A DNA stretch of 64,000 nt from an uncultured Verrucomicrobiae bacterium (GTDB taxonomy: Bacteria > Chlamydiota > Chlamydiia > Chlamydiales > Rhabdochlamydiaceae): NCBI GenBank assembly GCA_963813135.1, contig CAWEXY010000011.1, forward strand, positions 64,001-128,000. Direction: 5' to 3'. Under the pieces are notes generated by a model. That model was given only the letters and a program-made list of their open reading frames with translations. It made no database searches and was not told where the DNA came from. Both the position numbers and the translations under genes were made by a program. Positions 57,117 through 62,990 of the stretch are shown here, in pieces (the first letter of the stretch is position 1; each line of letters opens with the position of its first letter).

Positions 57117-57915
57117 AGAACTGCCCATCGGCATCTTTGATTCAGGATTCGGAGGCCTCACGGTTCTACGCGCCATCAAATCGATCCTGCCTTCCGAGTC
57201 TTTCATCTATTTTGGCGACACGGCCCGCCTCCCCTATGGATCAAAAAGCGGTGAAACGATCATCCGCTACTCCCTCGAGAACGCCTCTTTTTTACATAGC
57301 ATGGGGATTAAAGCCCTCGTCGTCGCTTGCCATACAGCGTGCAGCTTTGCCCTCAAAGAGCTTGAAAAATCGTTGCCGATTCCTGTCATTGGGGTCATCG
57401 CTCCGGCCATTGCGAAAATCCAGAAGCTCTCTTCTAAGGGTAAAATCGGAGTGATCGCAACGAGGGCGACCATCGCTTCAGGAACCTATCAGTCTCTACT
57501 TTTGCCGAACCAAGTTGAGGCTGTCGCCTGTCCTCTTTTCGTCCCGCTCGTCGAAGAAGGGTTTATCGATCATCCGATCACAGATCTTGCTATCCAAGAG
57601 TATCTGCAGCCGCTTAAGGATAAAAAAATCGATACCCTTCTCTTAAGCTGCACACATTACCCTTTATTAAGGAAGCGTATTGAGCGCTTTTTTGGATCTG
57701 AGGTCCGCGTACTCGACCCGGGAGAGGCTTGCGCTGAAGCGCTGCAAACGCTACTGACAGAGCAAGGCATGCTGTCTGCCTCTCCGCGAGCGGATCAATT
57801 CTTTGTCTCTGACGGCCCCGAGCAGTTCCGCCGGCTAGGGGCATGTTTTCTAGGTCATCCGCTTACTGGTGTTTCTATAAGCACCGAGTCGTTCAACGAT
57901 CGCATCTTGCGATAA
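57109..57915 (+). CDS. murI: Glutamate racemase
   Basis: IGIFDSGFGGLTV, DTARLPYG, ACHTA and CTHYP. Confidence 0.93.
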   Translation: MDKELPIGIFDSGFGGLTVLRAIKSILPSESFIYFGDTARLPYGSKSGETIIRYSLENASFLHSMGIKALVVACHTACSFALKELEKSLPIPVIGVIAPAIAKIQKLSSKGKIGVIATRATIASGTYQSLLLPNQVEAVACPLFVPLVEEGFIDHPITDLAIQEYLQPLKDKKIDTLLLSCTHYPLLRKRIERFFGSEVRVLDPGEACAEALQTLLTEQGMLSASPRADQFFVSDGPEQFRRLGACFLGHPLTGVSISTESFNDRILR

Positions 57916-59221
57916 AGCAGCAAAGTTTCCCAAAAAAACATAACCACAGCTACAAACGTCCAAAAATAAACAGCAGGACCATCGAATATTTGAACAATAG
58001 CATAAATCGTTATCGACTCGGCCCAGTTGAGGCCAGCTACAACAAATAAAAATTTTGTATATTGGTGAGCTAAAATAAAGCCCGTAAACATAACGTTATG
58101 AGTAAAAACAAGAAAAAAGATCCAGTTTCCTAGAAGAATAGGAGTTATCATTTCCTTCATTTGCATGCACTTCTCGGGCGAAAATAAGAGGGCCATGGTT
58201 GAATAAGGAAACAAGAGGGCAGGAATCGCGAGTAGAACTGCAAAAAAGATAAATAAAGATAGGCCTGACTTATAGAGAAGAGGTAACTTGTAATATTGTT
58301 TGGCACCCAAGAAGCGCGCTCCCATTGTTGTCATAGTCTGGCTAAAAGCTTCCCCAATGAACATCGTGAAAATAGCGATGGTCCCGCCGATAGAAAACAC
58401 CAATAAAAAATCCTCCCCCTTGCGCGTTACGACCCAGGTGAGCGCTGCCCAACTTGAGGTATTTAAAATACGGGCGCAAAATCGCATCAGCCCTGGCGAA
58501 GTATACTTCCATAAAAGAACTCGATCTAATTTCCAGTTATCCGTCCCGAATTCACTGCGATAAACAGAGCGCAGTAAAAAGAGTACCAAAAATAGGCATA
58601 ATCCCCCTTCTGTAATAAGAGTAGCAATACCCGCCCCCTTCAGCCCCATAGGGAGAATCTTATCCGCCCAACCAAAAATGAGCAGATAGCATAGACCTAA
58701 ATGCAGCACGTGAGTTGCAATGGTTGCGGCGAGAAAATTTTTGCGCGCCCAATGCCGATATAAAAGGCAGCGAATGCGGCAATTAGGGGATAGAGAAAAT
58801 TTAGGGGAGAAAGAAGATTATAATAAGGAAGGGCTAGAGACGCGATAGTCATGCCAGAAAAATAAAACTGCCCCACGCCCCAACCTAAGGGAATTGTAAT
58901 GAAGGCAGAAAAAATACAAAACCATACCATTTGCCACATACAAGGACCCACGGCTTGCTTTTCCTGGGCCCCCATATGAAATCCTATGGCCGCTTGCGCC
59001 ATCAGAGGCACGGCCATGCAGGGAAAATAAAATAAACGGGAAACATACATCACAGTCAGAGCCGCTTCCATGCCTTCTAAAGAAAAACGCGCCAAAAGCA
59101 ACCGTTCTACGAAAGCAAGAAGCGACCCCGATAAAATAGTGGCAGCAATAGGAATGAAAAGACGAAGAAATTCGCCTTTCATACCTACAAGAGGCAATTG
59201 CTGCCGATCTAAAGAAACCAC
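57855..59221 (-). CDS. MATE family transporter, with an apparent frameshift near 58735
   Basis: EFLRLFIP, MG.KGAGIAT.I.E and about 12 hydrophobic segments. One added T joins KIF to LAATIATHVLHLG. Confidence 0.8.
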
Positions 59222-59243
59222 TGAAAAGATCTCTTATTACATT

Positions 59244-59594: not shown

Positions 59595-59619
59595 ATAACC
59601 TCCTTAAGGTTTTATTTCC

Positions 59620-62600
59620 CTATTTCTCCTTGCAACTCCTTGCAATATGAAAGGAGCCATTGACTAAACGATAGGCAATCTTTATTCCTTTCTTCATTAA
59701 CGATAGGTAAGAAGAGTAGAATAAAGGAGCAACAGGGACTTGTTCGATAATGAATTTTTCCGCTTCAGCAAGATAGGTTTTACGGGTAGTAGGATCGACT
59801 TCATTATCAGCTTTGGCTAAGAGCTCCTGATATTCAGGATGCTCCCAGTTAGCAAAATTGGAATCTTCAGATGCATAGCGGAATGCATTGAGGGTATAAA
59901 TGGGATCGTCAAACCACGACACCCAAACAGTTAATATAATATCGCATTCTCGCCGGGTAGCTTTTTGAAAAGCTCCTCCAAGCTACATTATCTAGACGGC
60001 ATTGGATCTTGAATACTTCTTCCCATTGCTTTTTTAAAATACGAGCGACGTTAGTATTCGCCATTCTGCCTTCAATGTACGTGATCGTTAAAAGAGGAAA
60101 CTGGGAAAGTTCCAAATTGCACTCTTGCAGGCCCTCTGCAAAGAGCTGCTGCGCTAAAACGCGATCGCATACAATAGAATGGGAGGTGAGCCTGTGATGC
60201 AAAGGGAAGGGAGAATCAGCGGGTTTAATCGACGCAACAACGGCCGAAGAGAATTCATTTCGGTCGAGCGCCAAAGCCAGCGCCCGACGAATTTTTTGAT
60301 TATTTAAAGGAAACCGGTGATTATTGAAGGCCGCCCATAAGACACCGCCATCCTGCCATTCAAAAACCTTTTCATCCGCAGCAGGAACAATTGCGGATGT
60401 CAAATGGCTTAAAGGACTTCCGATCCAGTCGAGCTCGTTTTTTCGAAGCATTTCGACCGACTCATCCATCGTACTGCGCATAAGGACAATCTGATCTAGC
60501 GGTATATTGGATGCATCCCAATAGTAGGGGTTCTTTACGAACTTATAACCCTGTTGGGGTTGCTGGACTTCCAGCTCAAAAGGGCCATTGCAGGGATATT
60601 GCTTTTTCACCTGATAAGGCCAGCTGGGATGCCGCTGATCGATGCGATGATTGACTGGAGAATACATTGAGTGAGCTATAAGGTCTAAAAAGTAGGGGGC
60701 GGGATGGGCAAGCTCGACAAGCAGCGTTTTTTCATCGACAGCCCGTATGCCAACCTCTTCTATGGGCAGAAGCCCTTCTTTGGCCTTTTTTGCATTTTTT
60801 ATCGGGTAAAAAAGATACGCAAATGAGGTCTTAAAATCGGGAGAAAGGACTTTTTTCCAGGCATATTCAAAGTCATAGGCAACGACAGGGGTGCCATCAT
60901 TCCACCTTGCTGAGCGAAGTTCAAAAAGATATCGCTTGCCATCGGGAGACATTTCGAAGGATTTTGCAATTCCTTTTTCTATTTCTCCTTTCGCGTTGAC
61001 GCGCATGAGCCCTTCGAATAGGAGGCGTATCAAATTTGAAGTTACGCTATCTCCTCCGATACGAGGATCCAAGGATAGAATGGTATGTTGAAAAGCGATG
61101 CGAAGGATTTGCTGCTCTTCAACTTTTCTTCTCCACCGATGAAGAATACCGCGAACCTCATGGAGAAGAGATTCAGTTTCAGGTTGTTGTGCATGCTGGA
61201 TCAAGCAGGAGAAGGTATATCCATGGCGACTCTCGAGCGGAATCGTTGTAATATCGAGATTGCGCAATTGAAATTTGCTAAAAAGAGAAGCAATCTGATC
61301 TAAAAGTCCTTTTTCCTTTACGCGGACGGCAAGATAGGTGTGTCTTTCATCTGCCTGCACATTGAAAAAGTAACTCGTCTCTTTCCCCCAAGGTTTTTTT
61401 ATCCCTTCTAAAAAAAGTTGGAAAAGTCGCGTCAGCACATCTAGATTGAGCGTGGCTTGTTTTTCAAGAGGAGTGATAGCGTAGAAAAAGTCTTCTAAAA
61501 GCTCTGTCTCGCTCTCCGTCAACTCTTTAAAACGCTCGCGGAAGGCAAAAAGGAGCTCGCTTTGTTTCACGAGCAGGCCACCGTTAAAGTCCCTGAACTC
61601 TCCAACAGCTTGTTCAATCAAAGCAGCCACTTTCTGCCTTGCTAGATAGAAGTTGAGCGATCCATCGGACCGGAGAAGGGAAAAGTCCCTGGGGATGCGT
61701 AATCGGAAAAGATGGGCCTGAACTGGGTATCGTTCTTCCAGATAACGGACGATTTGTGTGCGTTCATGTTCGAAAACAAAGCTTTCAGCAAGTCTGCCAA
61801 AATAGTTTTCAATAGAAAGAAGGTCTTTGGTAGATACGCTCACGAGAATCACGAGAAAGGAGACGTCTTCCTGCGCCTGAGATTCAAAGGAGATAATAAC
61901 CTGGGGAAGATCGAAAGGAGATTGCAGCTGTTGGCTCAACGTTAAAATATTTTTATAGATCTCTTCTTCATTGCGGCGCATGAAGATAGAAGGGTACAAT
62001 TTGGGAAATCCCTGTTGGAGCCGATCTTGCAGATCATGCAGGATAAGAGCTCTATCTCGAACAGAAAAAACCTCTTCGCCCTTTTTTTCGATCTCGAAAT
62101 AGAGCATTTTAATTTTTTCATGCTTGGTAGAATGAAAATAAAGACTATCCCGAATGATATCGGCCGTCGGAAGCAGCTTTTGAAGGGCTTGAAAGATATA
62201 CTCTTCATCGAGAACCTCAAACCGGTCCTGCCAATAAGCGGCAATTAAGCAACCCAGCACTCGCTTTCGTGAAAAAGGAAAATGCAATTTGCCAGGAATG
62301 AGGCGCAATTTGAGCTGCCGCGCATCGGCCGATTGGGTAATATTGCGTAAAATTTGTTTTCGCATCCAATAAAGAGAAAGGACCAGATGGATGACATGCT
62401 TGGTCGTCCGGTACTGAAGAAATTCATTTTTAATCAGATCAAAAAAAAATGGCCAAATCTTCTTCGACCCCGTTTTCGAAAAAGCGCGGGAACCGTGACC
62501 GATAATTATGGACCGTTGAGCGGATCCTATTCTCATCGTTGCGCAAAGCGATCTTGCTGCTTAATAAAATTCTGGCAGGGTTGGTGCCAATTTCCTTAGC

Positions 62601-62990
62601 CCAAGTCTCTAGAGAACTTCTAGCCGCTCTCCATTCGTAATCATCTTGCAGCAGTACTTTGGCAGATCCTACAAAAATGGGCCTCGAAGAGACAGGTGTC
62701 AGGGCGAGATAAGCATGTTGAAAGGCTCGAATAGCTACTTTACGATCAGGGACAAGACTATGGCGCAGTACATCGAGAAGCAAATCCTCCCATCTTAAGG
62801 GGGATCTCGGGAGGGCCATCAAGACTACAGATAAATAATCGGGCGGCGAGATATCCGTATCCCACCGTAAGAGAGGAAAGGTCTCCTGAATCCACTCATC
62901 ATAGTCGACAACATCTTCAAAAAAACTTCGCTCGGGAAGATATCCCTTGACGATTTCCAGCAGATCTAAATCGACCTCACTCGTATCCAT
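59620..62990 (-). CDS. About 1120-aa protein: large unknown N-terminal region fused to a family-5 (OppA-type) solute-binding domain, with apparent frameshifts near 62445 and 59970
   Basis: SLDPR, LFEGL, WNDGTPVVAYDF, NGPF and KNPYYW in the C-terminal half. Removing one base from the A9 run at 62441-62449 fuses ORFs 62439-62990 and 59909-62536. No signal peptide or lipobox. Confidence 0.8.

Follow-up and report, generated by a model that had tools for sequence, protein, structure and literature searches.

What would a solute-binding protein of the OppA type do in the cytoplasm of a chlamydia, beside an SH2 domain and an exporter? The question is raised by a stretch of 64,000 nucleotides (the window; positions 64,001 to 128,000 of CAWEXY010000011.1, denoted C11) in the 1.83 Mb, 82% complete genome of an uncultured member of the Rhabdochlamydiaceae (GCA_963813135.1, denoted G000). 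Three co-oriented genes on the minus strand of the window encode a giant protein (62990→59620, in three frames), a stand-alone SH2 protein (59594→59244) and a MATE-family exporter (59221→57855, in two frames). SH2 domains are signalling modules typical of animal cells. The giant and SH2 genes are separated by 25 nt (59595..59619), the SH2 and MATE genes by 22 nt, and the first of these spacers holds a strong ribosome-binding site, AAGGAGGT, upstream of the SH2 start, a motif that is also kept in the orthologue. Pfam recognizes the family-5 solute-binding domain of the giant (SBP_bac_5, PF00496, E 4e-49) and the second piece of the MATE gene (MatE, PF01554, E 2e-9); the SH2 match is sub-threshold (E 0.011). 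An earlier note, made from the DNA letters, had described this layout, which is confirmed in the sequence, and had proposed an operon for the sensing or export of (phospho)peptides inside the bacterium.

The three genes make up a real, conserved and widespread cassette, present in many environmental chlamydiae. In the source genome, all 3 SH2 genes lie directly behind its 3 giants. Among the 129 genomes of the family, 49 carry a total of 72 SH2 matches, at least 61 of which have a giant no more than 5 kb away, counting giants among the matches listed (81 giant-type rows among 150 listed, with 121 further rows besides). These 61 are mostly found downstream on the same strand (46), less often divergent (11) or convergent (4); of the other 11, one adjoins a piece of a giant, seven adjoin a MATE gene (one of them has a cut OppA fragment next to it as well) and three have neither neighbour. 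Outside the family, 17 of 20 chosen SH2 matches adjoin a giant and 16 of 20 have all three genes, ten of the 20 loci being duplicates of loci in another locus set. Seventy-eight loci were found by the N-terminal array of the giant (see below), and 64 of them hold a giant that is followed by 2 kb or more of sequence. An SH2 gene accompanies 52 of these giants, a MATE gene (within 3.5 kb) 43, both 39 and neither 8; in four of the latter, the giant is directly followed by a degenerate tandem SH2-like gene that lacks the FLVR arginine. As a control, the commonest unrelated neighbour family occurs near at most 12 of the 78 loci. Since related genomes are not independent of one another, the linkage counts should not be read as statistical tests.

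The titles of related loci mostly name Chlamydiae, Rhabdochlamydiaceae, Simkaniaceae or Parachlamydiales; the adjacency of the three genes is kept across many chlamydial families, contrary to the outcome that would have refuted the earlier note. The term operon is only partly apt: 29 of 44 one-to-one cassettes are co-oriented and 15 are rearranged, and the genes therefore form a cluster that is not always an operon. The three genes have not been parted by inversions, by paralogous duplications (genome G022 has as many as four cassettes) or by their many different flanking contexts, and pairwise distances among the 44 cassettes correlate (rho 0.81-0.89; MATE clade versus giant 0.89). The source genome has two paralogous cassettes (C21, 66188-72225; C11, 203527-207020), one with two MATE genes and one with a Ser/Pro-rich SH2 protein and no MATE gene. 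At another locus (L107:9928-10635), the gene directly behind a giant encodes a protein built mostly from a Ser/Pro-rich tandem repeat of 7 residues.

The giant is a fusion of three or four ACT-like repeats with a signal-less OppA domain. The OppA/DppE-like domain at its C-terminus (59620..61108, minus strand) is a complete family-5 fold (VIA Z 45 to DppE; E 2e-86 to an OppA) and is intact in L037, the 1123-aa orthologue from the same genus. A lipobox is found in 1 of 92 giant ORFs compared with 20 of 28 free OppA-like ORFs, some loci being counted twice, which agrees with the proposal of a cytoplasmic giant. The oppB, oppC, oppD and oppF genes are likewise absent from the vicinity, as had been reported: the five ABC permease matches of the genome are confined to two contigs other than that of the window, C9 and C7, and no permease family is among the 25 commonest neighbour families of giant loci. 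A surface patch (T843, E849, D866, A867, L869) that is conserved in free OppAs is lost in giants, and we infer that it docks free OppAs on the permease. In OppA, an arginine and an aspartate that flank a conserved tryptophan presumably bind the peptide termini. The aligned reference OppA has the sequence RMGWLGD at this site; in giants, the commonest residues are L/G/T at the arginine position and Trp (54/87) at the aspartate position, and free chlamydial OppA copies mostly lack the Arg/Asp pair too. Chlamydial OppA3 is reported to be connected with peptidoglycan recycling, and a muropeptide is a conceivable ligand. Two free OppA-like genes elsewhere in the window (29210-30799 and 33623-35200) have no adjacent permease match. 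Giants with two OppA domains occur (L054:7534-12594, 1686 aa; L055:8480-13582, 1700 aa), with no SH2 or MATE match nearby.

The N-terminal half of the giant (61109..62990, minus strand), left unidentified in the earlier note, is modelled here as an array of ACT-like repeats. The last three repeats were modelled by AlphaFold with a pLDDT of 93, and the first was taken from the model of an intact orthologue. The array model has the ACT* topology, as in large glutamate dehydrogenase, which is also the top match in Foldseek (7jsr, E 3.6e-6); with VIA, too, this enzyme comes first (7a1d, Z 9.2, rmsd 2.7, 103 aligned; next Z 7.2), and the Atlas gives the ACT* assignment as a lead (0.76-0.82). Fold searches with the whole giant are dominated by OppA matches. 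By sequence, the array has no match in Pfam, among PDB sequences or with hhalign, and a Pfam scan of four giants and one two-domain giant gave no HTH match. The linker motifs RNEEE, DLPQ and GExRDYNGG of the array contain charged residues that are invariant in 142 homologues.

Trees of the two domains (FastTree, no outgroup test) indicate how the fusion may have arisen. The 88 giant arrays all fall into a single group, which also takes in two contig-cut fragments. Of the 87 OppA domains of giants, 85 cluster with one fragment (support 0.80); the remaining two are the second domains of two-domain giants. The giants are thus one clade in both domain trees, which points to a single origin. The array itself is far more widespread, being found in 125 of 129 family genomes and 361 of 400 genomes of the phylum; it was not found in the 29 small genomes of family f20 (listed genomes 1.0-1.2 Mb), which are probably Chlamydiaceae. 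At 20 hand-picked loci the array is unfused. All nine class I arrays stand directly behind an amino-acid-kinase gene of ∼ 260 aa without ACT domains (the four scanned are all PF00696), which from its N-terminal motif we take to be an aspartokinase, and 10 of the remaining 11 (the 675-741 aa class) stand directly behind a lipoprotein oppA gene; no SH2 or MATE gene is present at the 20 loci. This is how a regulatory module would behave, and the link between array and oppA predates the fusion. The unfused array behind the aspartokinase-like gene may act as a giant regulatory subunit encoded on its own. We thereby assign a fold, and two functional settings (aspartokinase-like gene and oppA), to a previously unnamed family that is near-universal among the chlamydial genomes searched. 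The nine class I loci are L235-L243, and the source genome has such an array behind an ACT-less aspartokinase-like gene as well (C30, 19042-21500); in six loci of the second class (L224-L234), a downstream protein of 342-582 aa has no Pfam match above cut-off.

The SH2 protein (59244..59594, minus strand) is intact and 116 aa long. Alone it falls below the Pfam cut-off (16.3 versus 21 bits); its paralogue on C21 passes, the profile of the family finds SH2 domains of solved structure with E values of 5e-7 and 2e-6 at best, and the Atlas matches the family with clusters of Chlamydiota SH2 proteins (0.94). Three members appear in public records as 'hypothetical protein'. Positions were assigned by alignment of 74 sequences: R48 is the FLVR arginine at βB5 (Arg in 64/74), H69 is βD4 (His in 71/74), G30 is αA2 (Gly in 43/74, basic in at most 2/74), P71 is βD6 (Pro in 46/74, basic in 1/74), and N85 (Asn in 71/74) is more conserved than the FLVR arginine. 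According to PMC7530234, a second basic residue at αA2 defines the Src-like class and one at βD6 the SAP-like class. As αA2 is mostly Gly and βD6 mostly Pro in the cassette family, neither class fits, and without the second basic residue phosphopeptide sensing is doubtful. Degenerate tandem SH2-like proteins, encoded directly behind giants (L112:9936-10619, L132:9941-10591, L147:3425-4249, L150:9941-10810), lack the FLVR arginine altogether and have a conserved NGG motif and Ser/Thr-rich N-termini; hhalign gives 93% for their SH2-like assignment, with an alignment that includes two sequences already called SH2. The incomplete basic pocket and the Arg-less variants suggest that the SH2 contact need not involve phosphotyrosine (pTyr). 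The (phospho)peptide ligand of the original proposal is accordingly hard to uphold: the OppA domain lacks the peptide-terminus residues, the SH2 domain lacks a basic residue at αA2 and βD6, and Arg-less SH2-like genes occupy the same place. The source genome does encode 13 kinase-like matches, so phosphorylation is available. No fused SH2 forms were found in annotated loci or, as weak evidence, among longer proteins. Of 400 genomes of the phylum, 97 have a match to the SH2 profile, weak matches to other SH2 families included. Chlamydial SH2 proteins unrelated to the cassette occur at L215-L218 (∼ 270 aa, with a C-terminal SH2-like domain), L219:4171-5376 (401 aa) and L220:232-2430 (732 aa, multi-SH2).

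The third gene (57855..59221, minus strand; PF01554) encodes a MATE-family exporter of ∼ 455 aa, whose profile aligns over ∼ 440 positions to Aq128, DinF-BH and NorM and matches solved MATEs at E 3e-26. TIGR00797 is matched by all 30 MATE homologues at E ≤ 0.001, the intact orthologue scoring below the cut-off of that model (89.9 versus 147.4, the one score shown); other subfamily models give scattered weak matches, among them SolL and WgkD (14/30 each). The 3′ end of the gene overlaps a convergent glutamate racemase gene by 61 nt. Rfam has no match within 56000-64000, and promoter and terminator scans of the locus gave nothing better than shuffles. An additional MATE of the cassette clade stands alone on contig C8 of the source genome.

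The frames of the cassette are broken near 62441 and at 59965-59980 in the giant and near 58736 in the MATE gene, and assembly error is the likely cause. In the same-genus genome G001 the same neighbourhood encodes intact products of 1123 (L037), 120 and 458 aa. A survey of 400 kb of G001 (318 ORFs, 201 with clear orthologues in the source genome) gave 21 orthologues with frame changes; after two adjacent paralogue pairs were dropped, 19 of 201 genes were counted as frameshifted (28 events), and another 12 have in-frame stops. The broken genes include what we take to be dnaE, polA, pheT and recA. Ten short contigs from short reads of one sample were aligned to the region: one (depth 2.4) lacks the extra base at 62441, which restores the frame of the giant, and another (depth 2.4) has one more base at 58736, which restores that of the MATE gene; the break at 59965-59980 lies outside their coverage. 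Compared with G001, the cassette has a pN of 0.08-0.29 and a pS of 0.65-0.90, with synonymous sites near saturation. Because breaks occur genome-wide, two are absent from the short-read contigs and pN is low, we reject a pseudogene as the main account. The three events in the cassette are a mild excess over the 0.6-0.9 expected (P 0.03-0.06), and given this and the uncovered middle break, there may also be recent decay in the source strain. The assembly of this genome is indel-rich, and split genes in its other windows are suspect.

How might the three proteins work together? We tentatively favour a cytoplasmic nutrient or metabolite sensor with a dedicated SH2 adaptor and a controlled MATE exporter. 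The giant arose once, when the chlamydial ACT-like array was fused to an OppA whose lipoprotein signal was lost. In the cytoplasm, a small ligand (a modified peptide or something amino-acid-like) would be bound by the OppA clamp and the ACT-like repeats, which would then change shape; the SH2 protein would be an adaptor dedicated to either the giant or the MATE protein, possibly phosphate-dependent and probably not a classical pTyr reader, and the MATE protein would be the regulated output. We are slightly more hesitant about the wider idea that environmental chlamydiae have domesticated SH2 for internal signalling, in which a MATE exporter would be switched by a ligand-gated ACT/OppA sensor together with an SH2 adaptor, possibly via bacterial phosphorylation. 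Several observations speak against the favoured reading. The giant has no recognizable output domain; the match of the array to ACT* is modest (Z 9.2, 9-13% identity), and hhalign found no match between the array profile and a chlamydial glutamate dehydrogenase. Moreover, 12 of 64 giants have no called SH2 gene and 21 of 64 no MATE gene, and the co-varying distances could be explained by shared descent alone. Known bacterial SH2 proteins, finally, are mostly translocated effectors (8/10; main text of PMC6208348).

That last point favours a quite different role, in which the SH2 protein is secreted to act on host phosphoproteins, as in Legionella, and the giant and MATE proteins are co-regulated partners or a chaperone. 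Some loci do have SH2 genes duplicated as many as three times, and the N-termini of the degenerate tandem forms are rich in S/T/P/N (0.30-0.50 versus a background of 0.22), as is that of the third paralogue in the source genome. However, this fraction, a weak indicator of translocation, is near background in the main family (0.26, 73 sequences), the basic pocket is incomplete, and for effectors it would be unusual to lie so close to a giant and to be linked with a transporter in several families. We consider secretion quite unlikely, and an SH2 protein that acts inside the bacterium, as originally suggested, is the better-supported reading.

An alternative that keeps all three proteins in the bacterium has the cytoplasmic OppA domain capture a compound and hand it to the MATE protein, like a binding protein in reverse, with SH2 as an accessory. 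The MATE clade does co-diverge with the giant (rho 0.89), and four of the 43 loci with a nearby MATE gene have no SH2, but 21 of 64 giants lack a MATE gene, and SH2 is the more constant partner. We know of no MATE protein that needs a binding protein, which also makes such delivery unlikely. The invariant charged residues of the linker motifs and the weak matches of the MATE homologues to SolL and WgkD, both exporters from biosynthetic gene clusters, would suit a minimal biosynthetic cluster, in which the array, as enzyme or scaffold, would modify an OppA-held peptide and MATE would export the product. Yet no enzyme fold matches the array above Z 7.2, no precursor or tailoring genes recur nearby, and the same motifs are present in the aspartokinase-linked arrays; we think this very doubtful. 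Least probable is a co-inherited block without functional coupling: some lineages have lost genes and descent by itself would correlate the distances, but the genes have stayed together through inversions, duplications and varied flanks.

If the sensor–adaptor–exporter reading is true, a eukaryotic signalling module has been put to internal use by bacteria, in an SH2 pathway that operates inside the bacterium and is built on an uncharacterized ACT-array family (361/400 phylum genomes). In the literature consulted, functional bacterial SH2 domains are host-directed Legionella effectors. In a literature search with few subscription journals in its scope, we found neither the cassette nor SH2 proteins of chlamydiae described; the main text of PMC6208348 has 0 occurrences of 'Chlamyd', and the SH2 list in its supplement could be relevant here. 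The note's statement that it knew of no described system of such composition agrees with this search. As far as these searches show, this is an undescribed cassette of known folds with a proposed mechanism.

Its parts, by contrast, have well-described counterparts. The Legionella SH2 proteins LeSH, RavO and LUSH resemble the cassette SH2 in having the FLVR arginine, in being stand-alone in some cases and in belonging to an intracellular bacterium (PMC6208348). They are mostly translocated effectors and pTyr superbinders, whereas the partners of the cassette SH2 are a sensor-like giant and a MATE exporter; LeSH has an arginine at βD6 (PMC7530234), where the cassette family has Pro, with Gly at αA2. 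SgrR and DsvR, as described in PMC4021124 and PMC13060122, are like the giant in that a cytoplasmic SBP_bac_5 domain is fused to another module, and SgrR controls an efflux pump, SetA. Their other module is an N-terminal HTH and their action transcriptional; the giant instead has the ACT-like array, no HTH match and a co-encoded SH2 protein. The N-terminal segment of large glutamate dehydrogenase resembles the array in its tandem ACT* repeats, topology and helical motifs, and such repeats have been proposed as metabolic sensors (PMC8175468). The giant differs from that enzyme in having no dehydrogenase domain, in the fusion of the array to OppA and in an identity of 9-13%. GarA is a small protein that we take to be a phosphothreonine-binding FHA protein. 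It is the partner by which large glutamate dehydrogenase is regulated (PMC8175468). OppA, DppE and MppA of Opp ABC importers share the complete family-5 fold with the giant, which has no lipobox and no adjacent permease and in which the Arg/Asp pair around the tryptophan is replaced. Each of these known analogues shares one part with the cassette, and none shares its whole composition.

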